Shown here: one piece after another, positions 19,592-62,441 of the stretch
How the letters are laid out: every line of letters begins with the position of its first letter
How positions within the stretch are numbered: position 1 is the first letter of the stretch
Origin: Mobula hypostoma
Lineage: Eukaryota
Direction: 5' to 3'
Assembly: GCF_963921235.1 (NCBI RefSeq)
Contig: NC_086097.1
Span: forward strand, 117,926,001-117,990,000
DNA length: 64,000 bases
Position numbers and translations under genes: made by a program
Notes under the pieces: generated by a model
Told to the model about the DNA's origin: nothing
Seen by the model: only the letters and a program-made list of their open reading frames with translations
Database searches by the model: none

Positions 19592-22573
19592 ATGGAGATT
19601 GAGGAATTTCTAAAGGCGCCAACCTTGGAGGCATTAGAGGATGCCAGGAGATCAGAATTGGCAACTGTGGCCAAACCGTTGAATCTTTTTAAGGGAAAGT
19701 CGACAATGAGGAGAGTGGAGATGCACAGAGCCATCATAGAGCATTATGTATCTAAAGGTGTGTTTCCCCAAGGGGAGCTGGAGGTGGTATCTATGGGCAA
19801 ACCTGGTGGAGAAGCAGTACAGCTGCAGATTGAAAAATTGAGACTCGAGCACAAGTTCCGTGTAAAACAGCTGGAACAAGAAGAGAGGGACAGGCAGTTA
19901 GAGTGAGAAGAGAGGGACAGGCAGTTAGAACGAGAAGCGAGAGAGAAGCAGAAGGACAGGGAATTTGAGCTGGAGAAGTTAAGGATGACAATAGCGCAGG
20001 GGCCCATGCCGAACCAAGGTGGAGGGTTCAGGGCGACCCAGGAGGTTAGGCTGGTTCCCCCATTTGAGGAGGCCGATGTTGATCGGTACTTTCTACATTT
20101 TGAAAAAGTCGCTGCAAGTCAGGACTGGCCGAGGGATTAGTGGGCTGTTTTGCTTCAAAGCGTACTTAAAAGGAAGGCTCAAGAAGCTTACTCGGCATTG
20201 TTCGCAGAAGATGCCCAGAGGTATGATGTGGTGAAAGAGGCAATACTCAGGATTTATGAGTTGGTCCCGGAGGCATACTGGCAGAGGTTCCGGAATGCGA
20301 GGAAGCAGTGGGGCCGCACATATTTAGAGTTTGCCCGTGAGATGCAGATGTATTGTGAGCATTGGTGCGCCACAAAAGGGGTCAATGGGGATTATAACAG
20401 ACTGCTACAGCTAATACTGATTGAGCAGTTTAAAGGTTGTGTCCCTGAAGGTATGAGACCCTACCTAGATGAGAAAGAGGCAGACACCTTAGCCGCAACT
20501 GCTAAGTTAGCGGATGAATACGCGTTAACGCACAAAGCGAAGTTTACCCCGAGTAAAAGCTACCACAAGGGTAGTCGAGAGGGCGGAGAGAGTCTACCGG
20601 GAAAGTCAGAAAGTAAACCGGGGACTAGTGAGAAGGATAAGGAAGACAGGAAGCAGTTTGGTAGGAAGTCTCCTGGGGTCGTATGCTATAATTGTGGGAA
20701 AGCCGGTCACTTTGCGTCCAGGTGCTTTGCCCCAAAGAAGGAGACGGGGAAAGGAAAAACGACCCCGACTGGCTGTATTGAGCCGGCAAACAAACCGCTA
20801 GGGGAGAAGAGGTCTGATAGAGTTCAGGAAGGGCGCGAGAAGTTTATCTCGGCTGGATTGGTGTCGGTGAAGGAGGGGTTAAACCCGGTTCCAGTACGGA
20901 TCTGGAGAGACACTGGAGCTTGTCAGTCATTGATATTAAAGAGTGTGTTAGACTTCAGTTCAGAGACCCAGACTGGGGAGGTCAGGGTGCTAAAAGGCAT
21001 TGGGAAAGAGACTGAAGCAGTACCTTTGCACCAGATACACCTACAAAGTGACTTGGTCTCCGGACCGGTTACGATCGGGGTGAGGCCCGAACTACTGATG
21101 GATGATGTGGAGGTCTTACTCGGTAATGACCTCACCGGCGGAGAGGTGTACCCAGCAGTAAGATTGACAAGCCAGCCTGCCAGCATTGAGGCCCTGCCTA
21201 TGGACTCACAGGTTTATCCCGTTTGTGCAGTGACACGGCGCATGTCCAGAAAGGCTGTCGAAGTAAATATAGATTTAGCTGAGACGTTTTTACCAGCCTT
21301 GTACCAGAAGGGGTTAGAAAGTGAGAAGGGGTGTAGTGACACGGAAATTGAGGTAGACTTATCATTAGCAAGGAAGGAATTTATACAGGCACAGGAATGA
21401 GACGAGAAGCTGATGGTTTTGACGGAGACAGCTCTCTCCGAAGCAGAATTAAAAAGGGAGCCAGTGGGCTATTATGTGAAGGAGGAAGTACTAAGGAGGT
21501 AATGGAGACCAAGTACCGTGCCCACAGATGAGGAATGGGGGGTGATAGTGCCGAAAATTTATGGGGATGAGATTTTTAACCTGGCCCACAAGATACCCCT
21601 CGGTGGACATTTTGGGGTGAGGAAAACAGTCGATAGAATCATGAAGGAGTTTTACTGGCCGCACAGGAGGAAGGATGCTATTGACAATTGTAGACGTGAG
21701 CTAACACAATTACAGGCTATTGATATGCTAACAGCTTGCCATGATAAGAGATCAGACCTAGTCAGTGTTATCACAAAAATTAATGAGGCTAGGGTGCCAC
21801 CTGATAAGGGGAAAACCCATTTTGAAAAGGTAAGTATGGTGCCGACCAGATGGGAGAACTCTATTGTTCTGGCCAACTTTGCTGATGAGTTCTCTCACTT
21901 AACCCCCGAACAGGGCGAGCCACTGACAAAGCTAATTAACAGGCATGCACACGTATGTCTGGATGTCCCGAGGCGATGCAAAGAGCCGGTACCTGGTGTT
22001 GTTGTCACATCAGGTCAGCCTAGTGAACAACACCCCTATAGGATGATTAATTCAGTGATAAAAGGGCTAAAGAACGCAGAAGCGTATATTGACGATTTAA
22101 TGGTCTGGAGTGACACGTGGGAGGGGCACATTGTGGCAGTAGAGGAACTGTTTACAAAGCTGGCTGAAGCCAGCCTGACAGTGAACCTCGCAAAAAGTGA
22201 ATTCGGCCACGCGAAGGTCACTTATGTGGGATTTGTGGTAGGACAGGGGCAACTGGCTCCGATGCAGGCTAAGGTGTAGGCTATCTCTGAAGTCCCCACC
22301 CCGACAGACAAGAGAGCCCTGAGAAGGTTCTTGGGGATGGTGGGGTACGATCAGATGTTTTGCAAAACCTTTGCGAATATTACCCTCCCTCTTACTAAGC
22401 TCTTGCCAAAGAATGCTAAGTTTGTGTGGGGCGATCTTTGTTATATTTGTCCGGGACAGAAACCACTGAGAATTTACACTGATCACAACCCATTAGTGTT
22501 TTTGGCCACTATGAAGGATAAAAACAAAAGGTTGCTAAATTGGAGCCTGGTCTTAGAGGATATTAAAATAACA
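19592..22573 (+). pseudogene. gag-pol: SCAN-like capsid, CCHC knuckle, aspartic protease, partial integrase, partial RT and RNase H
   Basis: PEAYWQRFR..LILIEQF..LADEY; CYNCGKAGHFASRC; RDTGACQSL; AHKIPLGGHFGVRKT..FYWP; AYIDDL; IYTDHNPL. All pieces lie in one frame separated by point stops; continues as HIKGTENVIADCLSRC at 24600-24650. Confidence 0.9.
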
Positions 22574-24595
22574 TAGAAACATAGAAACATAGAAAATAGG
22601 TGCAGGAGTAGGCCATTCGGCCCTTTGAGCCTGCACCGCCATTTATTATGATCATGGCTGATCATCCAACTCAGAACCCAGCCTTCCCTCCATACCCCCT
22701 GACCCCTGTAGCCACAAGGGCCATATCTAACTTCCTTTTAAACATAGCTAATGAACTGGCCTCAACAGTTTGTTGTGGCAGAGAATTCCACAGATTCACC
22801 ACTCTCTGTGTGAAGAAGTTTTTCCTAACCTCGGTCCTAAAAGGCTTCCCCTCTATCCTCAAACTGTGACCCCTCGTTCTAGACCTCCCCAACATCGGGA
22901 ACAATCTTCCCGCATCTAGCCTGTCCAATCCCTTTAGGATCTTATACGTTTCAATCAGATCCCCCCTCAATCTTCTAAATTCCAACGAGTACAAGCCCAG
23001 TTCATCCAGTCTTTCTTCATATGAAAGACCTGCCATCCCAGGAATCAATCTGGTGAACCTTCTTTGTACTCCCTCTATGGCAAAGATGTCTTTCCTCAGA
23101 TTAGGGGACCAAAACTGCACACAATACTCCAGGTGTGGTCTCACCAAGGCCTTGTACAACTGCAGTAGTACCTCCCTGCTCCTGTACTCGAATCCTCTCG
23201 CTATAAATGCCAGCATACCGTTCGCCTTTTTCACCGCCTGCTGTACCTGCATGCCCACTTTCAATGACTGGTGTATAATGACACCCAGGTCTCGTTGCAC
23301 CTCCCCTTTTCCTAATCGGCCACCATTCAGATAATAATCTGTTTTCCTATTTTTGCCACCAAAGTGGATAACTTCACATTTATCCACATTAAATTGCATC
23401 TGCCATGAGTTTGCCCACTCACCCAACCTATCCAAGTCACCCTGCATCCTCTTAGCATCCTCCTCACTGCTAACACTGCCACCCAGCTTCGTGTCATCCG
23501 CAAACTTGGAGATGCTGCATTTAATTCCCTCATCCAAGTCATTAATATATATTGTAAACAACTGGGGTCCCAGCACTGAGCCTTGCGGTACCCCACTAGT
23601 CACCGCCTGCCATTCTGAAAAGGTCCCGTTTATTCCCACTCTTTGCTTCCTGTCTGCTAACCAATTCTCCACCCACACCAATACCTTACCCCCAATACCG
23701 TGTGCTTTAAGTTTGCACACTAATCTCCTGTGTGGGACCTTGTCAAAAGCCTTTTGAAAATCCAAATATACCACATCCACTGGTTCTCCCCTATCCACTC
23801 TACTAGTTACATCCTCAAAAAATTCTATGAGATTCGTCAGACATGATTTTCCTTTCACAAATCCATGCTGACTTTGTCCGATCATTTCACCGCTTTCCAA
23901 ATGTGCTGTTATCACATCCTTGATAACTGACTCCAGCAGTTTCCCCACCACCGACGTTAGGCTAACCGGCCTATAATTCCCCGGTTTCTCTCTCCCTCCT
24001 TTTTTAAAAAGTGGGGTTACATTAGCCACCCTCCAATCCTCAGGAACTAGTCCAGAATCTAACGAGTTTTGAAAAATTATCACTAATGCATCCACTATTT
24101 CTTGGGCCACTTCCTTAAGCACTCTGGGATGCAGACCATCTGGCCCCGGGGATTTATCTGCCTTCAATCCCTTCAATTTACCTAACACCACTTCCCTACT
24201 AACATGTATTTCGCTCAGTTCCTCCATCTCACTGGACCCTCTGTCCCTTACTATTTCTGGAAGATTATTTATGTCCTCCTTAGTGAAGACAGAACCAAAG
24301 TAATTATTCAATTGGTCTGCCATGTCCTTGCTCCCCATAATCAATTCACCTGTTTCTGTTTGCAGGGGACCTACATTTGTCTTTATCAGTCTTTTCCTTT
24401 TTACATATCTATAAAAGCTTTTACAGTCCGTTTTTATGTTCTCTGCCAGTTTTCTCTCATAATCTTTTTTCCCCTTCCTAATTAAGCCCTTTGTCCTCCT
24501 CTGCTGAACTCTGAATTTCTCCCAGTCCTCAGGTGAGCCACTTTCTCTGGCTAATTTGTATGCTACTTCTTTGGAATTGATACTATCCCTAATTT
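22574..24595 (-). mobile_element. Young 5'-truncated CR1 inserted in the Gypsy RNase H
   Basis: (CATAGAAA)n tail at left; AACA duplicated at 22570-22573 and 24596-24599; host frame EDIKIT|HIKGTEN rejoins across the insertion. Confidence 0.95.
22671..24344 (-). CDS. CR1 ORF2 reverse transcriptase (partial, 557 aa uninterrupted)
   Basis: KSPGPDG, NYRPVSLTS, QHGF, YLDFQKAFDKV, GVPQGSVLGP, KFADDTK motifs. Confidence 0.9.
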   Translation of the reverse strand: MIMGSKDMADQLNNYFGSVFTKEDINNLPEIVRDRGSSEMEELSEIHVSREVVLGKLKGLKADKSPGPDGLHPRVLKEVAQEIVDALVIIFQNSLDSGLVPEDWRVANVTPLFKKGGREKPGNYRPVSLTSVVGKLLESVIKDVITAHLESGEMIGQSQHGFVKGKSCLTNLIEFFEDVTSRVDRGEPVDVVYLDFQKAFDKVPHRRLVCKLKAHGIGGKVLVWVENWLADRKQRVGINGTFSEWQAVTSGVPQGSVLGPQLFTIYINDLDEGIKCSISKFADDTKLGGSVSSEEDAKRMQGDLDRLGEWANSWQMQFNVDKCEVIHFGGKNRKTDYYLNGGRLGKGEVQRDLGVIIHQSLKVGMQVQQAVKKANGMLAFIARGFEYRSREVLLQLYKALVRPHLEYCVQFWSPNLRKDIFAIEGVQRRFTRLIPGMAGLSYEERLDELGLYSLEFRRLRGDLIETYKILKGLDRLDAGRLFPMLGRSRTRGHSLRIEGKPFRTEVRKNFFTQRVVNLWNSLPQQTVEASSLAMFKRKLDMALVATGVRGYGGKAGF

Positions 24596-32330: not shown

Positions 32331-33417
32331 AAAAAGTTGTTCTCCTTTGTGGTAATGATTATATGACACTATCTTCAATTTATAATACTCCATAATAAGT
32401 CATCCCAAGACCCTCAACAGGAATAATACTAAACAAAATTTGACATAAAAAGTGATAATGGGCCAGATTCTGTGGTTGGAAGTGGGCCAGCCACCTTGTT
32501 AGTCTCACTTGAATAAACGCCAAGATTATTTGAATTGATCAGGCAGCTGCAGCTTGACGAAGAGAGATAGCTGATGACAGGGAAAAGAGCTGGTTGGGCA
32601 GACATGACCCTTCCACAGCAAAGAGACAATTATTTCTGAGAGCTGGCAAAACAACATTAATTAGTTTACCAAGTATAGTGTTGCGTTGTTTTGTATGCAT
32701 AATAAAGAACTTCAGTTCCCATTGGGCAATGCAAAGGACCAGAACCGAAAGTTACGGTGGTAACAGGATTGCACGCACACAGCATTCAGCAACAGTTCAG
32801 TAATAAAATGTTCCAGTGTAAACCCACGCCAAGTTTGTTTATATTAACTAGAAACATAACATGCTGTCAGAAGACGGCATGAGGTCGAAACATGGAGAGT
32901 AAATGAATACAGTGTGCGACTGAGAAAGAGACAGCATGACTTCGAAAGGTGCTAGCGGCAAGAGTGGTTGGATGCTAGTTATGATGGAGAGGAGTTGACC
33001 AGCAGGGTGAGAAAGTATGTTATTCCCGAAGTTGAGCAGTCACTGGATGCACCAAGAAAGATTCAGGTGAGAGGCCAAGAGTTACCTGCTATGGATAAGC
33101 TAAGTCCTCCTACGCCTATGCAGTTTTCAGGCAATCTAACTGATAACTGAAAATGCTTCAAATAGTGATTCAATATATATTTAGTTGCTTGCAGAGTGGG
33201 AGGGACCGAGGAAAAATTGAAAGTGTTAATTTTTCTGCATATAATTGGTTAAGATGTTTGGGACACCTTTCACAGCTTTCAAATTGATGAGACCACCGTT
33301 ATGTTGGGCACTCTGATGACAAAATAGGAGGAGTATTTTGTCCCAAGACATAATTGTATGTTTGAAAGGTACAAGTTTTTTTTCCTGTTGACCAGAAACA
33401 AGGTATTAACTACAACT

Positions 33418-35120
33418 CAAACAACAGGAATTCTGCAGATGCTGGAAATTCAAGCAACACACATCAAAGTTGCTGGTGAATGCAGCAGGCCAGGCAGCAT
33501 CTCTAGGAAGAGGTGCAGTCGACGTTTCAGGCCGAGACCCTTCGTCAGGACTAACTGAAGGAAGAGTGAGTAAGGGATTTGAAAGTTGGAGAGGGAGGGG
33601 GAGATCCAAAATGATAGGAGAAGACAGAATGGAGAGGGATAGAGCCAAGAGCTGGACAGGTGTAGGCAAAAGGGGATACGAGAGGATCATGGGACAGGAG
33701 GTCTGGGAAGAAAGACAAGGGGGGGGTGACCCAGAGGATGGGCAAGAGGTATATTCAGAGGGACAGAGGGAGAAAAAGGAGAGTGAGAGAAAGAATGTGT
33801 GCATAAAAAGAAGTAACAGATGGGGTACGAGGGGGAGGTGGGGCCTTAGCGGAAGTTAGAGAAGTCGATGTTCATGTAATCAGGTTGGAGGCTACCCAGA
33901 CGGAATATAAGGTGTTGTTCCTCCAACCTGAGTGTGGCTTCATCTTTACAGTAGAGGAGGCCGTGGATAGACATGTCAGAATGGGAATGGGATGTGGAAT
34001 TAAAATGTGTGGCCACTGGGAGATCCAGCTTTCTCTGGCGGACAGAGCGTAGATGTTCAGCAAAGCGGTCTCCCAGTCTGCGTCGGGTCTCGCCAATATA
34101 TAAAAGGCCACATCGGGAGCACCGGACGCAGTATATCACCCCAGTCGACTCACAGGTGAAGTGTTGCCTCACCTGGAAGGACTGTTAGGGGCCCTGAATG
34201 GTGGTAAGGGAGGAAGTGTAAGGGCATGTGTAGCACTTGTTCCGCTTACAGGGATAAGTGCCAGGAGGGAGATCAGTGGGGAGGGATGGGGGGGACAAAT
34301 GGACAAGGGAGTTGCGTAGGGAGCGATCCCTGTGGAATGCAGAGGGGGGGGTGGGAAAGATGTGCTTAGTGGTGGGATCCCATTGGAGGTGGCGGAAGTT
34401 ACGGAGAATAATATGTTGGACCAGGAGGCTGGTGGGGTGGTAGGTGAGGACCAGGGGAACCCTATTCCTAGTGGGGTGGCGGGAGGATGGAGTGAGAGCA
34501 GATGTACGTGAAATGGGGGCGATGCGTTTAAGAGCAGAGTTGATAGTGGAGGAAGGGAAGCCCCTTTCTTTAAAAAAGGAAGACATCTCCCTCGTCCTAG
34601 AATGAAAAGCCTCACCCTGAGAGCAGATGCGGCGGAGACAGAGGAATTGCAAGAAGGGGATGGCGTTTTTGCAAGAGACAGGGTGAGAAGAGGTATAGCC
34701 CAGATAGCTGTGAGAGTCAGTAGGCTTATAGTAGACATCAGTGGATAAGCTGTCTCCAGAGACAAAGACAGAAAGATCTAGAAAGGGGAGGGAGGTGTCG
34801 GAAATGGACCAGGTAAACTTGAGAGCAGGGTGAAAGTTGGAGGCAAAGTTAATAAAGTCAACGAGTTCTGTATGTGTGCAGGAAGCAGCGCCAATGCAGT
34901 CGTCAATGTAGCGAAGGAAAAGTGGGGGATAGATACCAGAATAGGCACGGAACATAGATTGTTCCACAAAGCCAACAAAAAGGCAGGCATAGCTAGGACC
35001 CATACGGGTGCCCATAGCTACACCTTTAGTTTGGAGGATGTGGAAGGAGCCAAAAGAGAAATTATTAAGAGTAAGGACTAATTCCGCTAGACGGAGCAGA
35101 GTGGTGGTAGAGGGGAACTG
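33418..35120 (-). mobile_element. Penelope-like (Neptune-type) element, 5'-truncated, 13-bp TSD
   Basis: RT MGTRMGPSYA..RYIDD and GIY-YIG VIYC..LYIGET; ATTAACTACAACT at 33405-33417 and 35121-35133. Confidence 0.95.
33517..33552 (-). ncRNA. Minimal type I hammerhead ribozyme motif
   Basis: Minus strand reads AGTC-CTGACGA-AGGgtctcggCCT-GAAA-CG-TC-GACT. Confidence 0.75.
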
Positions 35121-35214
35121 ATTAACTACAACTAATAGTTATCAGAGCTTTATACACTGAATAAGTCCTGTGAATTTGGAAATTTGAGAAACTCACTAGT
35201 TAGAGACAGGATAG

Positions 35215-37426: not shown

Positions 37427-39466
37427 GCCTACTTCTTCGGCAAGGACTCTTCCACCCCCACCGATGACCCCTTCTCCCGTCTTCGACCCTCTTCTTCTTC
37501 ATGGACACCCCGCTCTGGTCTTCTGCCTGCTCTGGATCTCTTTATCGCTAACTGCCAACGGGACATCAACCGTCTCAACTTCACCGCACCTTGTCCCCAT
37601 TCCAACCTCACTCCTTCGGAACGCTCTGCTCTCCACTCCCTCCGCACTAATCCTAACGTTATTATTAAACCCGCCGATAAGGGGGGTGCTGTTGTAGTCT
37701 GGCGTACTGACCTCTACCTTGCCGAGGCACAGCGACAACTCGCGGATACCTCCTCTTATTTACCCCTCGATCGTGACCCCACTAAGGAGCACCAGGCCAT
37801 TGTCTCCCACACCATCACCGACTTTATCCGCTCAGGGGATCTCCCATCCACTGCCACCAACCGTATAGTTCCCACACCCCGCACTTCCCGTTTCTACCTC
37901 CTACCCAAGATCCACAAACCTGCCTGTCCTGGCCGACCTATTGTCTCAGCTTGCTCCTGCCCCACCGAACTCATTTCTGCATACCTCGACACTGTTTTAT
38001 CACCCCTTGTTCAATCCCTTCCGACCTATGTTCGTGACACTTCTCATGCTCTTAAACTTTTCGATGATTTTAAGTTCCCTGGCCCCCACCGCTTTATTTT
38101 CACCATGGATGTCCAGTCCTTATATACTTCCATCCCCCATCAGGAAGGTCTCACAGCTCTACGCTTCTTTTTGGATTCCAGACCTAATCAGTTCCCCTCT
38201 ACCACCACTCTGCTCCGTCTAGCGGAATTAGTCCTTACTCTTAATAATTTCTACTTTGGCTCCTCCCAATTCCTCCAAACTAAACGTGTAGCTATGGGCA
38301 CCCGTATGGGTCCTAGCTATGCCTGCCTTTTTGTTGGCTTTGTGGAACAATCTATGTTCCGTGCCTATTCTGGTATCTGTCCCCTACTTTTCCTTCGCTA
38401 CATCGATGACTGCATTGGCGCTGCTTCCTGCACGCATGCAGAACACGTTGACTTTATTAACTTTGCCTCCAACTTTCACCCTGCCCTCAAGTTTACCTGG
38501 TCCATTTCCAACACCTCCCCCCCCTTTCTAGATCTTTCTGTCTCTGTCTCTGGAGACAGCTTATCCACTGATGTCTACTATAAGCCTACTGACTCTCACA
38601 GCTATCTGGACTATTCCTCTTCTCACCCTGTCTCTTGCAAAAACGCCATCCCCTTCTCGCAATTCCTCCTTCTCCGCCGCATCTGCTCTCAGGATGAGGC
38701 TTTTCATTCTAGGACGAGGGAGATGTCTTCCTTTTTTAAAGAAAGGGGCTTCCCTTCCTCCACTATCAACTCTGCTCTTAAACGCATCTCCCCCATTTCA
38801 CATACATCTGCTCTCACTCCATCCTCCCACCACCCCACTAGGAATAGGGTTCCCCTGGTCCTCACCTACCACCCCACCAGCCTCCGGGTCCAACATATTA
38901 TTCTCCGTAACTTCCGCCACCTCCAACGGGATCCCACCACTAAGCACATCTATCCCTCCCCCCCTCTCTCTGCATTCTGCAGGGATCGCTCCCTACACAA
39001 CTCCCTTGTCCATTCGTCCCCCCCATCCCTCCCCACTGATCTCCCTCCTGGCACTTATCCCTGTAAGCGGAACAAGTGCTACACATGCCCTTACACTTCC
39101 TCCCTTACCACCATTCAGGGCCCCAAACAGTCCTTCCAGGTGAGGCATCACTTCATCTGTGAGTCGACTGGGGTGATATACTGTGTCCGGTACTCCCGAT
39201 GTGGCCTTTTATATATTGGCGAGACCCGACGCAGACTGGGAGACCGCTTTGCTGAACATCTACGCTCTGTCCGCCAGAGAAAGCAGGATCTCCCAGTGGC
39301 CACACATTTTTATTCCACATCCCATTCCCATTCTGACATGTCTATCCACGGCCTCCTCTACTGTAAAGATGAAGCCACACTCAGGTTGGAGGAACAACGC
39401 CTTATATTCCGTCTGGGTAGCCTCCAACCTGATGGCATGAACATCGACTTCTCTAACTTCCGCTAA
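37427..39466 (+). CDS. PLE reverse transcriptase plus GIY-YIG endonuclease; frame appears open from the TGA at 37424-37426, first ATG at 38105
   Basis: 453-aa ORF in the track plus in-frame upstream PLE motifs read by eye; upstream frameshift and stop indicate an inactive copy. Confidence 0.8.
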   Translation, partial: AYFFGKDSSTPTDDPFSRLRPSSSSWTPRSGLLPALDLFIANCQRDINRLNFTAPCPHSNLTPSERSALHSLRTNPNVIIKPADKGGAVVVWRTDLYLAEAQRQLADTSSYLPLDRDPTKEHQAIVSHTITDFIRSGDLPSTATNRIVPTPRTSRFYLLPKIHKPACPGRPIVSACSCPTELISAYLDTVLSPLVQSLPTYVRDTSHALKLFDDFKFPGPHRFIFTMDVQSLYTSIPHQEGLTALRFFLDSRPNQFPSTTTLLRLAELVLTLNNFYFGSSQFLQTKRVAMGTRMGPSYACLFVGFVEQSMFRAYSGICPLLFLRYIDDCIGAASCTHAEHVDFINFASNFHPALKFTWSISNTSPPFLDLSVSVSGDSLSTDVYYKPTDSHSYLDYSSSHPVSCKNAIPFSQFLLLRRICSQDEAFHSRTREMSSFFKERGFPSSTINSALKRISPISHTSALTPSSHHPTRNRVPLVLTYHPTSLRVQHIILRNFRHLQRDPTTKHIYPSPPLSAFCRDRSLHNSLVHSSPPSLPTDLPPGTYPCKRNKCYTCPYTSSLTTIQGPKQSFQVRHHFICESTGVIYCVRYSRCGLLYIGETRRRLGDRFAEHLRSVRQRKQDLPVATHFYSTSHSHSDMSIHGLLYCKDEATLRLEEQRLIFRLGSLQPDGMNIDFSNFR

Positions 39467-39761
39467 GGCCCCACCTCCCCCTCGTACCCCATCTGTTACT
39501 CATTCTTATGCACACATTCTTTCTCTCACTCTCCTTTTTCTCCCTCTGTTCCTCTGAATATACCTCTTGCCCATCCTCTGGGTCACACCCCCCCCCGTCC
39601 TTCTTCCCAGACCTCCTGTCCCATGATCCTCTCATATCTCCTTTTGCCTATCACCTGTCCAGCTCTCGGCTCTATCCCTCCCCCTGCTCTCTTCTCCTAT
39701 CATTTTGGATCTCCCCCTCCCCCTCCAACTTTCAAATCCCTTACTCACTCTTCCTTCAGTT

Positions 39762-39797
39762 AGTCCTGACGAAGGGTCTCGGCCTGAAACGTCGACT
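39762..39797 (+). ncRNA. Minimal type I hammerhead ribozyme motif
   Basis: AGTC-CTGACGA-AGGgtctcggCCT-GAAA-CG-TC-GACT: stem I AGTC/GACT, CUGANGA and GAAA boxes, GUC triplet. Confidence 0.75.
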
Positions 39798-42700
39798 GCA
39801 CCTCTTCCTAGAGATGCTGCCTGGCCTGCTGCGTTCACCAACAACTTTGATGTGTGTTGCTTGAATTTCCAGCATCTGCAGAATTCCTGTTGGTTGCCTA
39901 TGTTGACATGATTGTCACCTCCCTTCCAGTGTCTCCTGAGAGAACAGGGAAGATTAGTAAAACAACAAGGCCAGGTGAAACAAGAAAGAACTCAAAGATA
40001 CAAAGCAGACGGGATGGCCTGCAGCTAGAAATGACTGTCCAATGTGTATTTTTGCTTATTGGACGTGCAGAGCTGAAATGCCAGTGGTGAAAGATATGGT
40101 CTTCAAAGGGTACAGGTTTATGTTTCCAGTATTGCTATGCAAGGAAATGCTCCAGAAGATACAGTACATGAAAGGCATCTTGGTGAGGAAAAATGTAAAT
40201 GTAGAGCTCATGAGGTGATGTACTAGCCAAGAATGAACCAAGATATCAGCTTGAATCAAGATATTGCTTCATGTGAAATATGCCTTACCTACAGACCAAA
40301 GCAGAACGCAGAACCACTTACATCACACCCTGTATCAGACAGTCTGTACTTCAAAGTAGGAGTGGATTTGATTGATTGTAATTAGAAGAGTTATATTGTT
40401 GTAAGAGACTACTTTTCTGATTACCCAGAGTTTGCAACACTGCAATCAACATCCAGCAAGGCGATCATCACCTTCCGAAAGATGTGTTTCTGAGGCATGG
40501 AGTTCCATGTGAAGTGGTATCAGACAATGGTCCACAATTTTCAAGCTGTGAGTTTCAGTCCTTTGCCATTGATTGGGGGTTTAAAAATAAAACTTCAAGC
40601 CCACATCACCTAAAATCTAATAGCTTAGCAGAGAGTTCAGTCAAGGTAGTGAAGGACTTCAAGAAGAAAGGACAAGATGAATGAGAGGATTTCCACAAAA
40701 GTCTGATGATTTACAAAAATGTGCCACTGCAGAATGGCCTTTTACCAGCCCATATGCTGATGGGTTGATGCATACACACTAACCTTCCAGTCGACACCTA
40801 AAGGAGCCCACAAGATCAAATTGGCTAAAGTAAAAGAGAACGAGAAACCAATGCAGTATTATGACAAGACTATGAAAAGCCTACCAGTCCTGAAGCCTGA
40901 ACATCAAGTGCAAATCCAAGACCAAGATTCTGGTACATGGTCCATGCAAGGATATGTGCAAGAGGAAGCAGCTCCACATTCCTACCAGATCCAGACAGAG
41001 AGAGGAACACCTCTGAGAAGTAACTACATGGATCTACAACCATAAGCTCCAACCCTGTCACCTGCCAGTTTACCAAAGGGGCCAGCATTTGTAAACATTG
41101 AATATGTTGATCAGAATTCTCAGAAAGACACAAATATTAAGCAGCCTAAGCAAGCAATGCACCTGTGGAAATAAATAGCAGACTAAAAATGTCCATTAAA
41201 CCACCTCAGAGGCCAATTGAAAGTTGTTGAGTGGATTAGACAGTGCAGTTGCTCATTACCATTGAAGTTGAAATAGTGAACAGTTGAAAATTTGAAAGAA
41301 AAGAAGAGACTGACAATGGAATGTAGATATCTTTTTTGGGAAGATTTGTTGTTCTCTGCAGTCCTATAAGGACATAGAATTGTGTTTGTTTTCCTTCCAA
41401 GAGGGACATGTATTATTATGTGTGCATAATAAAGAACTTCAGTTGCCAGTGGGCAATGTGAGGAGTTCACCCAGAACCAGAAACTATGAAGGCTGTGCAC
41501 ACAGAGCATTGAGCAGCTGTTCAGCAATAAAATGTTCTAACATAAACTCACACCAAGTTAGTCTTGGCCTGAAACGTTGACTGTACCTCTTCTTAGAGAT
41601 GCTGCCTGGCCTGCTGCATTCACCAGCAACTTTGATGTGTGTTGCAGGAGTAGTCCATTCGGCCCTTCGAGCCTGCACTGCCATTCAGTATGATCATGGC
41701 TGATCATCCAACTCAGAACCCTGTACCAGCCTTCCCTCCATATCCCCTGATCCCTTTAGCCACAAGGGCCATATCTAACTCCCTCTTAAATATAGCCAAT
41801 GAACTGGCCTCAACTGTTTCCTGTGGCAGAGAATTCCACAGATTCACCACTCTCTGTGTGAAGAAGTTTTTCCTCATCTCGGTCCTAAAAGGCTTCCCCT
41901 TTGTCCTCAAACTGTGACCTCTCGTTCTGGACTTCTCCAACATCTGGAACAATCCTCCTGCATCTAACCTGTCCAATCCCTTTAGGATTTTATACGTTTC
42001 AATAATATGCCCCCTCAATCTTCTAAATTCCAACAAATATAAGCCTAGTCGATCCAGTCTTTCATCATATGAAAGTCCTGCCATCCCAGGAATCAATCTG
42101 GTGAACCTTCTTGGTACTCCCTCTATGGCAAGGATGCCTTTCCTCAGATTAGGGGACCAAAACTGCACACAATGCTCCAGGTGTGGTCTCACCAAGGCCT
42201 TGTACAAATGCAGTAGTACCTCCCTGCTCCTGTATTCAAATCCTCTTGCTATGAATGCCAGCATACCATTTGCCTTTTTCACCGCCTGCTGTACCTGCAT
42301 GCCCACTTTCAATGACTGGTGTATAATGACACCCAGATCTCGTTGCACCTCCCCTTTTCCTAATCGGCCACCATTCAGATAATAATCTGTTTTCCTGTTT
42401 TTGCCACCAAAGTGGATAACCTCACATTTATCCACATTAAATTGCATCTGCCATGAATTTGCCCACTCACCCAACCTATCCATGTCACCCTGCATCCTCT
42501 TAGCATCCTCCTCACAGCTAACACTGCTGCCCAGCTTCATGTCATCCGCAAACTTGGAGAAGCTGCATTTAATTCCCTCATCTAAGTCATTAAGATATAT
42601 CGTAAACAACTGGGGTCCCAGCACTGAGCCTTGCGGTACCCCATTAGTCACTGCCTGACATTCTGAAAAGTTCCCGTTTATTCCCACTCTTTGCTTCCTG

Positions 42701-43026
42701 TCTGCCGACCAATTCTCTATCCACATCAGTACCTTACCCCCAATGCCGTGTGCTTTAAGTTTGCACACTAATCTCCTGTGTGGGACCTTGTCAAAAGCCT
42801 TTTGAAAATCCAAATATACCACAATCACTGGTTCTCCCCTATCCACTCTACTAGTTACATCCTCAAAAAATTCTATGAGATTTGTCAGACATGATTTTCC
42901 TTTCACAAATCCATGCTGACTTTGTCCGATGATTTCACAGCTTTTCAAATGTGCTGTTATCACATCTTTGATAACTGACTCTAGCATTTTCCCCACCACT
43001 GATGTCAGGCTAACTGGTCTATAATT

Positions 43027-43247
43027 CAAACAACAGGAATTCTGCAGATGCTGGAAATTCAAGCAACATACATCAAAGTTGCTGGTGAATGCAGCAGGCC
43101 AGGCAGCATCTATAGGAAGAAGCGCAGTCGACGTTTCAGGCCGAGACCCTTCGTCCTGACGAAGGGTCTCGGCCTGAAACGTCGACTGCGCTTCTTCCTA
43201 TAGATGCTGCCTGGCCTGCTGCGTTCACCAGCAACTTTGATGTATGT
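43027..43247. mobile_element. Fold-back mini-element made of the PLE terminus, 12-13-bp TSD
   Basis: ~92-bp near-perfect inverted arms (43064-43155 and 43158-43249); TGGTCTATAATT(C) at 43015-43027 and 43248-43260. Confidence 0.95.
43153..43186 (+). ncRNA. Hammerhead ribozyme motif at the hairpin centre
   Basis: GTC-CTGACGA-AGGgtctcggCCT-GAAA-CG-TC-GAC. Confidence 0.65.
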
Positions 43248-45444
43248 TGGTCTATAATTCCCCAGTTTCTCTCTCCCTCCTTTTTTTAAAAAGTGGGGTT
43301 ACATTAGCCACCCTCCAATCCTCAGGAACTAATCCAGAATCTAAAGAGTTTTGAAAAATTATCACTAATGCATCCACTATTTCTTGGACTACTTCCTTAA
43401 GTACTCTGGGATGCAGACCATCTGACCCTAGGGATTTATCTGCCTTTAATCCCTTCAATTTACCTAACACCACTTCCCTAATAACATGTATTTCCCTCAG
43501 TTCCTCAGTCTCACTGGACCCTCTGTCCCCTACTATTTCTGGAAGATCATTTATGTCCTCCTTAGTGTAGACAGAACCAAAGTAATTATTCAATTGATCT
43601 GCCGTGTCCTTGCTCCCCATAATCAATTCGCCTGTTTCTGTCTGTAGGGGACCTACATTTGTCTTAACCAATCTTTTTCTTTTCACATATCTATAAACAC
43701 TTTTACAGTCAGTTTTTATGTTCCCTGCCAGTTTTCTCTCATAATCTTTATTCCCTTTCCTAATTAAGCCCTTTTTCCTCCTCTGCTGGACTCTGAATTT
43801 CTCCTAGTCCTCAGGTGAGGCACTTTTTCTGGCTAATTTGTATGTTTCTTCTTTGGAATTGATACTATCCCTAATTTCCCTTGTCAGCCACGGGTGCACT
43901 ATCTTCCCTGATTTATTCTTTTGCCAAACTGGGATGAACAATTGTTGTAGTTCATCCATGCGATCTTTAAATGCTTGCCATTGCATATCCACCGTCAACC
44001 CTTTAAGTGTTATTTGCCAGTCTATCTTCTTTAAGTTTGGAAACTTTGTTTCTGAATTAACTATGTCACTCTCCATCTTAATGAAGAATTCCACTATATT
44101 ATGGTCACTCTTACCCAAGGGGCCTCTCACGACAAGATTGCTAACTAACCCTTCCTCATTGCTCAATACCCAGTCTAGAATAGCCTGCTCTCTAATTGGT
44201 TCTTTGACACGTTGGTTCAAAAAACCATCCCGCATCCATTCCAAGAAATCCTCTTCCTCAGCATCCTTACAATTTGATTCACCCAATCTATATGTAGATT
44301 GAAGTCACCATTATAACTGCTGTTCCTTTATTGCATGCATTTCTAATTTCCTGTTTAATACCATCCCCAACCTCACTACTACTGTTAGGTGGCCTGTACA
44401 CAACTTTCACCACCGGTTTCTGCCCTTTAGTGTTAAGCAGCTCTACCCATATCGATTCCACATCCTCCCGGCTAATGTCCTTCCTTCCTATTACAGTAAT
44501 CTCCTCTCTAACCAGCAATGCTTCTGCACCTCCTTTTCTTTCATGTCTATCCCTCCCGAATATTGAATATCCCTGAATGTTGAGCTCCCATCCTTCGTCA
44601 CCCTGGAGCCATGAGCCATGTCTCTGTGATCCCAACTATATCATAGTCATTAATAACAATCTGCACTTTTAATTCATCCACCTTGTTATGAATGCTCCTT
44701 GCATTGACACACAAAGCCTTCAGGTTTGCTTTTGCAACATTCTTAGCCCTTATACAATTATGTTGAAAAGCGGCCCTTTTTGATTTTTGCCCTGGATTTG
44801 CCGGCCTGCCACTTTTACTTTTCACCTTACTACTTTTTGCTTCTACCCTCATTTTACACCCCTCTGTCTCTCTGCACTTGTTCCCATTCCCCTGTTGTGA
44901 ACTAACCTCCTCTCTCCTAGTCTCTTTAATTTGATTCCCAGGTTGTACTTCTTCCCCTCCTCCCACCATCTTATTCTGGCCTCTTCCTTTCCACTCCTGA
45001 TCAGGCTCTTGGCCCAAAACATCGACTGTTTATTCCTCTCCATAGGTTCTGCCTGACCTGCCACCTCCTCCAGCATTTTCTGTGTTACTCTGGTTAATCA
45101 GAACATGCAAAATCTTTTGTGATTAAAATTAAAGCCTACAAATATTATGAAATTGTTTAGAAATTGATTTTTATATATAAAGGCATTTAAAAATTCACAC
45201 ATTTGTTTAAAAACTCCTAAGTGAATGTAAAATTTCAGTAACCCTTACCCAGAAGTATTGAGTTTAATACCATGGAAGTAAAGAGCGTGCCAGCCTACAG
45301 AGTCTCATGAGAAGTGATCACATTGAACCTATTCAAACATACCATTTCATAGATACCATTGAGGAAGATGTTTGGAAGCACCAGGAGAACTTCAGCAATG
45401 ATTTGATGCTGAACTTAGAAAGTTGCCAAGAAATCTCCTAAGGA

Positions 45445-46669: not shown

Positions 46670-49559
46670 TGTTGTAGTGTGAGCATTATTAAAAGTAAGT
46701 TAATACTAGTTGGGATAATGAGGGGGTTTTACTTCCGTTCTTTTGTACTTCCAGTGGGCTCTGTGTATAGTGTGCCCACCATGCTGTACGGGTTGTGAAA
46801 GCCTCTGTATATACATCATGGTTTTGAATGTTCGAGATAAAGTTGTTTCTTGGGCATGAAGTTGTCGAGTGTGCCTTTTTTCAAAGTAGAAGTTACTCCA
46901 TATTTTTGGCGACGAGGTGAACTGGGTTCGTGTACGTAGCGGCATGTTTTTCGAATGGGAGCTTCGCGTTCGGATGGCTACGTTTCAAACTATCATTGAT
47001 TTTGTGGACGTGACGGAGAACTGGCCAGAGTATGGGGAAAGGTTGGACATTTTTTCTGTGCTAATGGAATTACTGAGGAGTCTAAGAAGTGCTCTATTTT
47101 CCTGAGTGTGTGTGGGGCAAAGACTTACAAGCTAATAAGGAATTTAGCTGCACCGCGGAAGGAAACCGGGGGACATTCCATATAACAAACTGGTCAAGCT
47201 CGTGGGGTAACACTACAATCTGAAACCTTCAGTGGTAGTCCAACGGTGTAAGTTTCACAGCCATTTCAGGAAGCCAGGTCAGTCTGTGGCCAATTTCATG
47301 GCCGAGCTTCGGCAGCTGCTGGAGCATTGTGAATTCGGAGCGGTGTTGGATGACATGCTCCGTGATAGATTGGTATGCGGCATTAATAATGATGGCATAC
47401 AACACCACTTGTTAGAGGAAACCCCACTGATGACTTTCAAGAAAACCTTAGAGATTGCCCAAGGCATGGAGATGGCTGCTAATAATGTCAAGGATATCCA
47501 GAAAGGATATTGGGGGTCGCAGTCGGCGGCAGTGCACCAAGCAGGAGGGAGACTGGTAAACGGGCAAAGCGGGTGGAATGTTTCCGGTGTGGAGGGACAC
47601 ACTATGCAAATGATTGCAAATTCAAAGACGCTGTCTGCCGTGCTTGTAGCAAAACGGGACATTTAACTAAAAAGTGCAGAAGTTCAAAGGCTAAGATTAA
47701 GCCTGGGCAGGGGAAAGCCCAACAGGCTCAGGTAGCCATACACCATCTAGAAGAAGCAGATGAAGAGGCAAAGTATGCCTATAACATGTTTGCAGTGGAA
47801 ACAGATGAGGAACCACCTGAACCATATTATGCCACAGTCACTGTCAGGGGAAAGGACATTAAGTTTCAGATTGATTCAGGGACTACTGCATTGGTCATTA
47901 GTGAGGAGACCTACAGGAGGACATGGGGGTCCAACCTGCCTCCCATTAGACCATTAAAGCTCAAACTTAGGATCTATACAGGGCAGCCCATACCTCATTT
48001 AGGGGTGTTATATGTGGACATTTCAGCCAGGGGTCAGAAGGCTGAAGCCAGGCTAGTGACAGGTAAGGGCAGGGGACCCAGTCTTTTGGGTTGCAATTGG
48101 CTTTGCAAAATCCAGTTAAACTGGCATGAGATTCAATATGTACACACGACGGAGGACATTCTGCAGTGGTACAGTGATGTTTTCAGGGACGAGCTGGGAA
48201 CACTGAAGGGCGTGACAGTGAAACTCCATGTCGACCCTGAGGCCACACCATGTTTTTTTTAAGCCCAGGTTGGTGCCCTATGCCATGAAAGACAAAGTTG
48301 AGTAGGAGCTGGAACGTTTACAGAGGCTGGGCATTATTGAGCATGTCCAGTTTTCAAGGTGGGCAGCTCCCATTGTTCCAGTTTTGAAGGCAGACAAAAC
48401 GGTGAGGATATGTAGTGATTATAAATTTATGGTGAATCAGATCTCTAGGCTGGAGGAGTACCCATTGCCACGGGTGGATGACCTATTTGAGACCCTGTCA
48501 GGGGGTAAGCTGTTCACAAATCTGGACATGGGCCATGCCTGCCAACAGCTGCTGCTCGACGAGGATTCAAAAGGAGTACGTCACAATTAATACGCACAAG
48601 GGATTATTCAAGTACAATCGCCTGGTGTTTGGAGTGGCGTCCAGCCCTGCCATTTTCCAAAGGATAATGGACACTTTGCTGCAGGGGATTCCACACGTAG
48701 CAGTGTACTTGATGATATTTTGATCACGGGGGCTACGGAGGTGGAGCATCTGGCTAATTTAGAACGGGTGTTGAAGAGGCTCTCAGACGCAGGGCTGCAG
48801 TTGAAACGCAGAAAATGTGTGTTCCTGGCATCGAGTGTGACTTATCTGGGACACAAGATCATACCTGAGGGGCTGTTTCCTGTGGAGGACAAAGTGAGAC
48901 AGACTACTGCGGAAGCATGTCCACCAGTGGCTTTGCCAGAGGGCGAGACACTGACAGAGAGGTCGGGGTCCCCTGAAGAGGATGGACATTCTCACGCAGA
49001 TACACAGACCCCTCTCATGCCCCCAACACCAGACCCACCCAAAACACCATCACCTGCGGTGCCTGCTGGGTCACCGGGGGTAGTGGGCAGATCACAACGC
49101 ACTCGTAAACCTCCTGACAGACTGAATCTTTGATGGGACAGTTCTTTTTTTGTTGTTGTTAGGTTGAATGTTGAATCTGTCACATTTTCCAGATGTTTTG
49201 TACCGATAAACTGTTACTGAGATACTAGTATAAGTTTTCAGGGGTACTCAAGTTAATAACGCCACCGTTTTTATTTCCTGGTTTTTTACATTTGGGATGT
49301 TGGATTTTGAATGGGGAGAAGTGCTGTAGGGTGAGCATTATTTAAAGTAAGTTAATACTAATTAGGGTAATGTGGGGGGGTGGGGGGTTTACTTCCGTTC
49401 TTTTTTTATTTCCGGTGGGCTCTGTGTATAGTGTGCCCGCCATGCTGTACGGGTTGTGAAAGCCTTTGTATATACATAACGGTTTTGAAGTTCACGATAA
49501 AGTTGTTTCTTGGGTATGAAGTTGGCGAGTGTGCCTTTTTCAAAGTAGAAGTTACTACA
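46670..49559 (+). mobile_element. Mag-like Ty3/Gypsy element, internally deleted (no RNase H or integrase core)
   Basis: LTRs 46670-46900 and 49322-49559; TSD ATGAG/GTGAG; PBS TGGCGACGAG at 46907; PPT ATGGGGAGAAG; inserted in a tRNA-SINE. Confidence 0.95.
46974..49133 (+). pseudogene. gag-protease-RT of the Mag-like element (frameshifted)
   Basis: LRDRLVCGI; CFRCGGTHYANDC and CRACSKTGHLTKKC; IDSGT; YPLPRVDDLF, FGVASSPAIFQ, YLDD-like; C-terminal RSQRTRKPPDRL. Confidence 0.9.
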
Positions 49560-55494: not shown

Positions 55495-55800
55495 AGCAAC
55501 ACACATCAAAGTTGCTGGTGAACGCAGCAGGCAGGTAGCATCTCTAGGAAGAAGCACAGTCGACGTTTCAGGCCAAGACTTTTCGTCAGGACTAATTGAA
55601 AGAAGAGCTAGTAAGCGATTTGAAAGTGGGAGGGGGAGGGGGAAATCCAAAATGATAGGAGAAGACAGGAGGGAGAGGGATGGAGCCATGAGCTGGATAG
55701 TTGATTGGCAAAAGGGATATGAAAGGATCATGGGACAGGAGGCGTAGGGAGAAAGAAAAGGGGGAGGGGGGAAAATCCCAGAGGATGGGCAAGGGGTATA
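55495..55800 (-). mobile_element. PLE 3' terminal fragment with hammerhead motif (55558-55593)
   Basis: Homologous to 33453-33755; minus strand AGTCCTGACGAAAAGTCTTGGCCTGAAACGTCGACT. Confidence 0.9.
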
Positions 55801-57691
55801 GTCAAGCTGAAACACTGACTCTGTTTCCCTTTTCACATGTGCTGCCAGTCCTGCTGGTGTTCCTAGCCTTCTCTGCGTGAAAATTTGTTTCAGCATTAAA
55901 CACTGTCTAGCCATTTGCTTGCAGAGATACAGCGTGAATCCGTACACAAGCCCGAGGTATGTACCTGCAGAAATATTAATGAGAAAATTGATACTCAAAC
56001 AGCATTAGACAAGTCTAAACCATCAAGAGTGGAACAGAATTGTTAGAAAAGTAGAAGTAGAAAAATGAAGGTTAGCAGAGAGTAAAAGAAAATGCCACTG
56101 TAATATTAATTAGAAGAAATATAATTTCAAGTAAGGCAATCATATTTGTGTTCGAGGAATCGGTGAGTTAAGCTAACACAAGTGAGAGATTGAAACCATC
56201 ACTGAGCTCAGCAGAGGCAAACACATTAGGTTGAAAGTGGTGGCAAATCTAAAATGCTTATGCAAGTCAGATGATCTTATCTGAAGTTTTGATAAGAAAA
56301 CGATCTTGTTTAAAGGTGTATCATGAAGGCTTGTCTGAGTTAAATCCAAATCAGACTTCAGAAACTGAAGAACCAAATCCTACCAGGCTGGACACAAAGT
56401 GAGATGAATTCAGATCCAGAACTAAACAGTCTAAAGGTTAATTAAACAGCAAAGCATGTAATTTCAGGAAGACTCTGAAAATGTACACTTCAAGCAAAAA
56501 AGAAATATAAAATAAAAAATGTAATTCTGAGAAGCATTCATTAGGAGTTGCTTAAACTTTACTGTTCAAATTGTAAAAAAAGAATATGATGAAATTAGCT
56601 TCCTTAACAGCGGGTGAACTGTATAATGAACCTCTATGTGTGGAAATACACTCACTGAATCAATACTTGCACATACATTGTGAGCCGCTTGAATAAGAGA
56701 GTCATATGACAAGGCTGCTGTTAACAGCATAACACTGACTGGAAAATTAATTCTGCAGCAGGAACAAGGAGACATGGATGTAGATTATATATCATAAATT
56801 CCACAATGGAGTTGAACTATTCATCTCACCCAGTGGTGAAGATAAATATTCACTTTCTAGTTTTATTATTTGTTGTTCCACAGTCATTGTCATATACTGT
56901 GAATTCTATAAAACACATTGGGTAACAGGGGCATCTTATGAATCCATTGATATCACTGGCCACCAGCCATCAGAGATCACTGTATCATGGAACAAGCCTC
57001 CAAATAATTGATCCCAGATGACTGATGAGGCCCAGTGTAATACACAGCGTCTCCAAAAACAATGGGGATGAAGTATTGCTTTGACAGTTAGTGAGGCATC
57101 ACCTCCAGCATTAGCAACCATCACTGTTATTTACATTGAATGTTCATGAAGGTTTCTCACAACAGAGAATATTGACAGAGATGTCACCAACTGCTGTGAA
57201 GTAGGTTCAGTACTTCTAAATTTGACATTACATGTGCAAAAATCTCAGACTATTGCTATTTAGTTATATGCCAACAGATACGGAACAGCTGGCATTTACC
57301 AGCAACATCTGGCCCTTTACTAAAAGAGAAAAAATGAGTTACTTGTTATTTAACATTTTATCGTCATTTCTGCATGTAAAAATGTCTTCATATCTGCGGA
57401 TTATAAAGCTTTAAAATATTTGAACGAGCAAAATGAAATTCTCTGAAAGATATATTGTTTAGGAATCAGCATTCATTTATAAAAATAAATACACTCCACG
57501 TCCATTTAGTATCCTTTTTCACCATTTGCTAGAGTAACTTGGTTATGGACAGCTATGGTGCTGGTGCAGGTCAATGGAACAGACAGTTTAAATGGTTCAG
57601 CAGGGACTCGATGGGCCAAAGGGCCTAATTCTGTGCTGTACTTTTCTATGACTCTATAACTTGATAGTAAATTACTTCTGTCCCTGAATTC

Positions 57692-59157: not shown

Positions 59158-60005
59158 GGGCTGAAGGGCGGAAGGATGAGGCGTCCTCTACCCAGCATCT
59201 TGTTGACAAATGTACAGTTGCTGGAAAATAAGATTAACGATCTCAGGGCAAGGCTGCAGTATCAGAGGCTGATGAGGCAGATCTCAATTGTTTTTGCACT
59301 GAAACTTGGTTAACTGTGAATATTCCTGATGTAGCTATACAACCGATTTTAAGAATGGATCAAGCAGTGAACTCTGGTAAGGAAAAAGGTGGCAGCGTGT
59401 GCTTTTCAGTCAATTCTTGTTGGTGCACAGGAATGTTGGAGTTATGTTGACTCCTTGTTCCCCTTCTTGAACAACTAACAATTAAATGTAGACCATTCTA
59501 TTTGCCTCGGGAGTTCTCATCCGTGATCCCAACCACAGCTTATATACCACCTGCACTCATGAAACTGCACAATGTTGTCTGCAGACAAGAAACAATTCAT
59601 CCTGATGCATTTCAAACTATAGTCAGTGACTTTAACCAGGCCCATTTGAAGAAAACCCTGCCCTATTATCACCAGCACATAACCTGTTGCACCAAAGATC
59701 TCAACACACAAGACCACTATCACAGTACGAAGAAGAGTTCCTATCATTCTTTTCTGTATTTTGGCAAGTCGGATCAATTGGCTGCACGCCTACTACTTGC
59801 TTACAGACAGCACCTAAAGAGCAAGGCTCCAGAGATCAGGACAATTAAGAGATGGTTGCAGGAGGCAGAGGAATGGTTACAGGATTGCCTTGGGTCAGTG
59901 GACTGGGCCGTGTTCAAGGACCCAAGTGAGGACCAGAATGATTCTATTTCTTCTCTAATCCTCTTACTGGAATCCAAGGATTCATAGAGCACCTGCTTAT
60001 TTCTT
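59158..60005 (+). repeat. 848-bp direct repeat, copy 1 (decayed Rex/Babar-like endonuclease region)
   Basis: Matches 61594-62441 at offset 2436, with identical ORF translations; LPSILLTNVQLLENK, ETWL-like and PFYLPREFSS motifs. Confidence 0.95.
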
Positions 60006-61593: not shown

Positions 61594-62441
61594 GGGCTGA
61601 AGGGCGGAAGGATGAGGCGTCCTCTACCCAGCATCTTGTTGACAAATGTACAGTTGCTGGAAAATAAGATTAACGATCTCAGGGCAAGGCTGCAGTATCA
61701 GAGGCTGATGAGGCAGATCTCAATTGTTTTTGCACTGAAACTTGGTTAACTGTGAATATTCCTGATGTAGCTATACAACCGATTTTAAGAATGGATCAAG
61801 CAGTGAACTCTGGTAAGGAAAAAGGTGGCAGCGTGTGCTTTTCAGTCAATTCTTGTTGGTGCACAGGAATGTTGGAGTTATGTTGACTCCTTGTTCCCCT
61901 TCTTGAACAACTAACAATTAAATGTAGACCATTCTATTTGCCTCGGGAGTTCTCATCCGTGATCCCAACCACAGCTTATATACCACCTGCACTCATGAAA
62001 CTGCACAATGTTGTCTGCAGACAAGAAACAATTCATCCTGATGCATTTCAAACTATAGTCAGTGACTTTAACCAGGCCCATTTGAAGAAAACCCTGCCCT
62101 ATTATCACCAGCACATAACCTGTTGCACCAAAGATCTCAACACACAAGACCACTATCACAGTACGAAGAAGAGTTCCTATCATTCTTTTCTGTATTTTGG
62201 CAAGTCGGATCAATTGGCTGCACGCCTACTACTTGCTTACAGACAGCACCTAAAGAGCAAGGCTCCAGAGATCAGGACAATTAAGAGATGGTTGCAGGAG
62301 GCAGAGGAATGGTTACAGGATTGCCTTGGGTCAGTGGACTGGGCCGTGTTCAAGGACCCAAGTGAGGACCAGAATGATTCTATTTCTTCTCTAATCCTCT
62401 TACTGGAATCCAAGGATTCATAGAGCACCTGCTTATTTCTT
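61594..62441 (+). repeat. 848-bp direct repeat, copy 2
   Basis: Matches 59158-60005. Confidence 0.95.

Follow-up and report, generated by a model that had tools for sequence, protein, structure and literature searches.

Is a 220-bp fold-back insert with a hammerhead ribozyme core, lodged in the reverse transcriptase frame of a host LINE, a new self-spreading element or a by-product of an integrating PLE? The locus lies in a 64,000-nt stretch of DNA (the window), and the original prediction had offered both readings for it: an extreme truncated-and-inverted PLE insertion, or a retrozyme-like, self-propagating partner of the PLE. As set out below, the hairpin is most likely an ordinary PLE by-product and not a new self-spreading element.

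The hairpin insert and its target site

The features of the locus and of the paralogous site that we compared it with are listed by their position in the window:

43015 to 43027, plus strand: left TSD of 11 to 13 bp, whose final base also belongs to the element, from the repeat search and the empty-site comparison
43028 to 43063, minus strand: 36-nt PLE "tail", which folds into its own small hairpin and is identical to the end of the PLE copy at 33 kb
43064 to 43155, minus strand: paired part of the long arm, a PLE 3′ terminus with its sense on the minus strand and a hammerhead core without its first two bases, from the inverted repeat and alignment
43153 to 43160, no strand assigned: junction, an 8-nt quasi-palindrome that is native to the parent element and made up of 3 bp, a 2-nt loop, and another 3 bp
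43153 to 43186, plus strand: minimal type-I hammerhead motif with a 3-bp stem I, a 3-bp stem II, and a loop-less palindromic helix III, from motif parsing
43158 to 43249, plus strand: short arm, a PLE terminus with its sense on the plus strand, a tail-less end, and a 2-nt microhomology to the target
43248 to 43260, plus strand: right TSD, from the repeat search
41643 to 43877, minus strand: host LINE of putative CR1 type, whose ORF2 (RT) is broken at NYRPV and extends further to the right, from alignment and translations
22601 to 24595, minus strand: uninterrupted paralogue of the host LINE, which represents the empty site, from alignment

A search for direct and inverted repeats placed the 220-bp insert at 43028–43247, flanked by a TSD and within the ORF2 of a LINE that is putatively of CR1 type. 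The TSD appeared as a 13-nt direct repeat (43015–43027 and 43248–43260, at a spacing of 233) with 100% identity between its copies, while the inverted repeat consisted of two 92-nt arms (43064–43155 and 43158–43249) that were 99% complementary and joined by a 2-nt loop, the 36-nt tail (43028–43063) being present at one side only. Because the microhomology at both element ends can be assigned in more than one way (nucleotides 43248–43249 close the short arm and at the same time open the right TSD, and the element begins on the base with which the left TSD ends), the TSD length is given as 11 to 13 bp. The region 42500–43800 contained only this TSD and a chance 18-mer as direct repeats, and in a random control, which left out window pairs closer than 300 nt, an 11-mer was common to two 23-nt windows in 0 of 20,000 draws. 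The TSD coincides with the NYRP codons of the host ORF2. At the paralogue (22601–24595), which is 93.3% identical over 2002 nt to the host minus the insert and whose ORF matches RVT_1 (E = 4.8e-34), the target is present once. The 220-base hairpin is confirmed as a real insertion. The original prediction had described a CR1 ORF2 split at NYRPV, a fold-back made of a PLE terminus and a ~92-nt inverted copy of it with a 2-nt loop and one mismatch, and a TSD of 12 to 13 bp, and the repeats, the alignment, and the paralogue bore out each of these points.

The sole mismatch between the arms (43090/43223) lies in a CpG and is a CpG transition; together with the identical TSDs, it suggests that the insertion is young. 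An ADAR footprint was ruled out as this mismatch, a single site only, is not a mark of A-to-G editing. The insert was predicted to fold at −193.5 kcal/mol (z = −26.5), which 0 of 200 shuffled sequences equaled. A minus-strand frame that runs through the insert was discounted on account of a stop at 43198–43200 and a frameshift upstream in the host. A hairpin of this makeup occurs in one copy in the 64-kb window. Elsewhere in the window, an 848-bp direct repeat (59158–60005 and 61594–62441; 100% identical) flanks a fragment of another LINE-type frame and is either a very recent duplication or an assembly feature, and broken gag/protease/RT-like frames of the LTR retrotransposon type were seen by eye in the translations of 20141–22279 and 47211–49133.

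Parent PLE copies and related inserts

The window also holds two long copies of the PLE and several shorter derivatives:

33418 to 35120, minus strand: ordinary 5′-truncated PLE copy with a tail and its own 13-bp TSD (33405–33417 and 35121–35133)
37427 to 39896, plus strand: long PLE copy with a 679-aa frame (RT and C-terminal GIY-YIG, with a Cys-rich linker) and its tailed end at 39896
55495 to 55804, minus strand: non-hairpin PLE fragment that ends at the tail-less site
41555 to 41645, plus strand: non-hairpin PLE fragment with a tail-less end and a deleted core, abutting the 3′ end of the host LINE
~16955 to 17180, no strand assigned: older two-armed insert from a sister PLE family, with a one-sided tail and a 12-bp TSD with one mismatch
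6912 to 7519, no strand assigned: two-armed unit of the sister family, with a tail-only antisense arm and a sense arm that starts from the 5′ edge of the hammerhead

The whole insert derives from the 3′ terminus of a local PLE: across 128 nt, the long arm has 96.9% identity to the end of the 33.4-kb copy and 94.5% identity to that of the 39.9-kb copy. The claim that it shares its terminus with the long PLE copies held for the 33-kb copy, whereas the terminus of the 39-kb copy differs by one base from the one quoted in the original prediction. In the 679-aa frame, RVT_1 (E = 1.8e-05) and GIY-YIG (E = 4e-04) were detected at scores that are both below the Pfam curated cut-off, and the translation of the 37427–39896 copy contains a C-x4-C-x2-C pattern between RT and EN. 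A Cys-rich segment between RT and EN is described as a mark of Neptune elements (PMC3846280), and judged from this linker motif alone the parent PLE looks Neptune-like. The two long copies are 96% identical, face outward, lie ~2 kb apart, and represent separate events; we considered them as one large inverted unit within a single TSD and rejected this, as the 33-kb copy has its own TSD.

Four variants are common to both arms, and no long local copy has all four. The original prediction, which had listed variants that set both arms apart from the long local copies, was correct in that all four are real and shared, yet they also occur outside the hairpin: two are present in the non-hairpin fragment at 55495–55804, and in the public sequencing run X1 two account for 19% and 2.3% of the summed depth, the other two being absent from the 40 of 177 rows listed. 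The four arm variants are therefore subfamily markers. As for the outer ends of the hairpin, the long arm begins at the full PLE end and the short arm begins 36 nt inside it, and all three short pieces of the same family (the short arm and the fragments at 41.6 and 55.5 kb) end within 2 nt of one tail-less site. The two outer ends of the hairpin match the two preferred 3′ ends of the PLE. At 41555–41650, the tail-less fragment meets the 3′ end of the host LINE via a 3- to 4-nt microhomology, where it replaces the short-repeat tail of the LINE that is seen in the paralogues at 12171 and 22570, and a deletion between two GTC has removed the hammerhead core of the fragment.

A search with the PLE end (nhmmer) gave 12 matches at 10 loci, or nine independent inserts when the pair at 6.9 and 7.4 kb is counted once. 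As judged by eye, five of these nine begin, at their 5′ end, no more than ~10 nt away from the 5′ strand of stem I (the inserts at 43 kb, 17 kb, 6.9/7.4 kb, 10.5 kb, and 41.6 kb), and the other four are longer. Some of the matches are themselves two-armed. In the insert at 16955–17180, which is diverged and was not recognized as a hairpin by plain BLAST, the arms meet, without overlap, ~2 nt away from the position that corresponds to the turn at 43 kb; in a third two-armed unit (6912–7056), the antisense arm consists of the tail only. The latter unit is present as two inverted copies (6912–7080 and 7351–7519) that are 91% identical and share ~25 nt of flank, with another repeat between them and no clear TSD, and the pair is a second-generation copy, which arose through an inversion of the DNA or was re-copied from RNA. 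Both sister-family inserts differ in junction geometry from the 43-kb hairpin. Junctions that differ between copies, which are one part of what the original prediction took to distinguish a by-product from a family, were thus found among the other two-armed inserts of the window.

We also traced the PLE terminus in public sequencing runs, where all counts come from contigs in which hairpins are collapsed and counting is saturated, and where summed depth is not copy number. In X1, 138,568 of 29.8 million contigs matched the 421-bp PLE end, and the PLE family is therefore very abundant. Loose ends with unrelated flanks were recorded at the tailed end in X1 (409 records), X5 (341), and X10 (351) and at the tail-less end in X15 (12), all among 24 of 1389 rows listed. 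Strand-switch joints numbered three among the 15 of 95 joints listed and lay at three different places; the joints listed show a variety of strand-switch sites, and a dominant form stays compatible with them. A joint matching the turn of the hairpin itself (~33546 to 33548) is absent from the 15 of 95 and the 12 of 145 rows listed, which in contigs of this kind carries no weight. One joint between opposite strands (33419/33452; four contigs in X1 and two in X5) connects a tailed end to a tail-less end, and represents either a tandem of two-armed units or an insertion into the element's own end. Another (33463/33551; three contigs each in X1 and X5 and one in X10) was found in runs under three organism labels, and on one side it falls, like the 43-kb hairpin, on the base with which stem I begins. 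The summed depth in X1 dropped ~3.6-fold between 33549 and 33565, from 14.2 million to 3.9 million, and joint rows starting at 33548–33553 made up 4 among the 12 of 145 rows listed. A homology boundary to a sister subfamily, visible as loose ends behind 33552, accounts for part of this pattern, which we treat as a lead only. In a scan of metagenomes for hairpins with these arms, 0 of the 120 listed loci matched the PLE end by BLAST at E 0.01; with arms that reach at most 17 nt beyond the pattern, these loci are unrelated short hairpins.

The hammerhead motif and the route of integration

The hammerhead was assigned by parsing the motif against the min-HHR definition of PMC4209133, and Rfam at its gathering threshold gave 0 matches across the window. 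The core is complete on the plus strand only, as originally predicted, with a predicted cut between 43183 and 43184, and is broken on the minus strand, which has the tail at its 3′ end. The junction quasi-palindrome takes in the 5′ strand of stem I together with the beginning of the core, and stem I has 3 bp in the insert versus 5 bp in both parent copies. Forcing the ribozyme fold was predicted to cost 57.7 kcal/mol in the insert, compared to 10.5 to 10.9 kcal/mol in the parents. Even for a nascent transcript that stops just past stem I, the predicted penalty was still 46.6 kcal/mol, because the complementary arm is transcribed first. The intact core would be sequestered in the 92-bp stem, where it is not expected to fold or cut, and its presence appears incidental.

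The two arms overrun the predicted cut site, one by 26 and the other by 31 nt, and the template RNA was therefore uncleaved; by the same overrun, we rejected the idea that ribozyme cleavage sets the turn. An uncleaved template agrees with the use of unprocessed RNA by PAc, for which such RNA is the main substrate (PMC11167929). For min-HHRs, single motifs are described as being without detectable cleavage and dimers as weakly active (PMC4209133). In neither X1 nor X5 did the summed depth change stepwise at the cut site (33520).

Very probably, then, an abundant PLE with an endonuclease left the hairpin behind as the dead-end product of a single integration. In one event with one TSD, two copies of the PLE 3′ terminus came to lie with their tail ends outward, joined at a native 8-nt quasi-palindrome 26 to 31 nt upstream of the hammerhead cut site. 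The single TSD, the one-sided tail, and the junction palindrome support the first of the two originally predicted readings, that of an extreme truncated-and-inverted PLE insertion. Given a by-product of this class, two-ended priming followed by annealing is a reasonably probable route. The RT/GIY-YIG protein would nick both target strands, 11 to 13 nt apart; on uncleaved RNA as the template, the top nick would serve to prime one cDNA from the tailed start, and the bottom nick another from the internal start. Synthesis would halt after ~130 and 100 nt, the identical cDNA 3′ ends would anneal via the quasi-palindrome (six pairs and two central mismatches), and fill-in would then fix the loop in its bottom-strand version.

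We consider more tentatively a variant with self-priming at the quasi-palindrome, either of the tail-less cDNA or of an antisense template, in which the tail is supplied by the other primed end or left by trimming. Self-priming on the antisense strand has been proposed from the abundant palindromes at inverted junctions (PMC3846280). A simple fold-back of the tailed first strand was excluded, as it would place the other two letters in the plus-strand loop. The turn is one of 38 among 363 cDNA ends that self-anneal with a paired 3′ base, and it ranks 15 by energy; self-annealing of the palindrome at the turn is plausible and not outstanding in this model, and its strength alone would not explain the turn.

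Alternative readings and known systems

Some of the data stand against a one-off by-product: the pair at 6.9 and 7.4 kb demonstrates that two-armed units can, by some route, undergo a further round of copying, the loop letters also fit the re-copying of a hairpin RNA, and tailed-to-tail-less joints occur in X1 and X5. They bear on a distinctly unlikely alternative, in which a self-propagating non-autonomous hairpin family would make a minus transcript with an unpaired 36-nt 3′ tail that the PLE protein binds in trans and copies whole. The loop, in the letters of a tailed first strand, is as expected from copying a pre-formed hairpin RNA; the arms carry a minor haplotype that is absent from both long local copies; pLTRs are reported to suffice for mobilization in trans (PMC3846280); the two-armed unit is duplicated at 6.9/7.4 kb; and the joint from a tailed to a tail-less end was seen in four contigs of X1 and two of X5. 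However, neither strand of the insert has a Pol III A or B box, a TATA, or a poly(A) motif by simple sequence patterns, and therefore nothing defines a unit-length RNA. A SINE likewise found no match, the A and B boxes being unmatched on both strands by such patterns and the insert being wholly PLE terminus. The short arm stops where ordinary fragments start, as expected of fresh local priming, and the terminus would be double-stranded throughout except for the tail. The arm mismatch, at its one site, is a CpG transition and not A-to-G editing, and junctions vary among the other two-armed inserts and the joints listed. A clonal hairpin family, if true, would be a non-autonomous retroelement propagating as almost fully double-stranded RNA, and an element that spreads in this way was not met in the literature searched. 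A related and likewise unlikely view holds that the turn at the 5′ edge of stem I is non-random and reflects a fixed RNA 5′ end or an RT stop. The arms would then be "strong-stop-like" cDNAs, and the PLE protein would afterward re-copy or concatenate the two-armed units, whose tail would remain single-stranded, into a non-autonomous hairpin family that seeds long dsRNA templates. Hints in this direction come from the five of nine inserts near the edge, the depth drop in X1, the duplication at 6.9/7.4 kb, and the tailed-to-tail-less joints.

The hairpin might also have formed later, at the DNA level, from an ordinary short PLE insertion by a replication fold-back or by gene conversion between the arms, which would suit the almost identical arms and a turn on a quasi-palindrome. 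Yet both copies of the TSD are intact, and the short arm terminates precisely at the second start site of the element, a position that a replication error would reach only by chance; we regard this origin as very improbable. Perfect palindromes are a known class of sequencing and assembly artefacts, and a chimeric fold-back read could produce one. Here, however, the host LINE resumes in register after a 13-bp duplication and the paralogue shows the empty site, while the arms are unequal, differ by one base, and both end at biological termini, which leaves an artefact with hardly any likelihood. We hence retain the reading of a by-product of PLE integration.

The retrozyme-like, self-propagating partner of the original prediction did not stand: there is no tandem, the core is sequestered and broken on the minus strand, stem I is reduced from 5 to 3 bp, the arms cross the cut site, and the short arm ends at the terminus of ordinary fragments. 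Animal non-LTR retrozymes resemble the hairpin in being non-coding, ~200 bp in length, and derived from PLE pLTRs with a type-I hammerhead (PMC7229834; bioRxiv 10.64898/2026.07.22.740005). They are, in contrast, direct tandem repeats in which successive ribozymes set free linear and circular monomers, with abundant unit-length RNAs of both forms at ~170 to 400 nt, and they are defined by at least two consecutive direct units with a complete type-I HHR each (bioRxiv 10.64898/2026.07.22.740005), whereas the hairpin is a single inverted unit that holds one sequestered core at its center, and no tandem arrangement was found in 42500–43800. With the min-HHRs of metazoan PLEs, the motif shares the conserved core, the loop-less helix III, the palindromic 15.2–16.2, and the short helix I (PMC4209133); it differs in its 3-bp stem I (compared to ~4 to 5 bp in that definition), in having the core on one strand, and in being fully paired to its complement. 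Pairs of min-HHRs on opposite strands, 100 to 700 bp apart, have been reported (PMC4209133).

Mechanistically, the closest likeness is to PAc, a Poseidon element from Anolis, which cuts and extends both strands from an uncleaved RNA template and uses two RT start sites that delimit the tail (PMC11167929), as we propose for the hairpin. The in vitro PAc data concern a Poseidon element, whereas the parent of the hairpin, with its Cys-rich RT-EN linker, looks Neptune-like, and the main text on PAc describes no joining of two cDNAs. In the literature searched, which lay outside subscription journals and repeat databases, no such hairpin family was described in cartilaginous fish, and finer prior descriptions of such hairpins may exist.

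In architecture, the hairpin resembles the inverted insertions of EN+ PLEs, which carry an inverted 5′-truncated copy and a 30- to 40-bp tail that is often at one end only (PMC8557442). In Pen2a_Av of Adineta vaga, an inverted pLTR comes with a 9-bp TSD, a 31-bp tail, and a 15-bp overlap, and palindromes are abundant at inverted PLE junctions (PMC3846280). Alike are the single TSD, the head-to-head termini, the one-sided tail of 30 to 40 bp, and the palindromic overlap. Accordingly, our insert combines the terminus of an RT and GIY-YIG element with an adjacent inverted 5′-truncated copy, tails outward, within one TSD, and has a 36-nt tail at one end and a palindrome at the junction. It differs from the insertions described in that neither an ORF nor a second pLTR separates the arms, in its total of 220 bp, and in an overlap of 8 nt with a 2-nt mismatch, where theirs span 15 to 38 bp. 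The hairpin is thus a neat, young case of an insertion pattern that is known, and it is useful as data: within 220 bp, minimal inserts of this kind preserve the two priming sites along with the distance between the nicks and the microhomology used in joining, in an architecture that is already published and is here reduced to its minimum.
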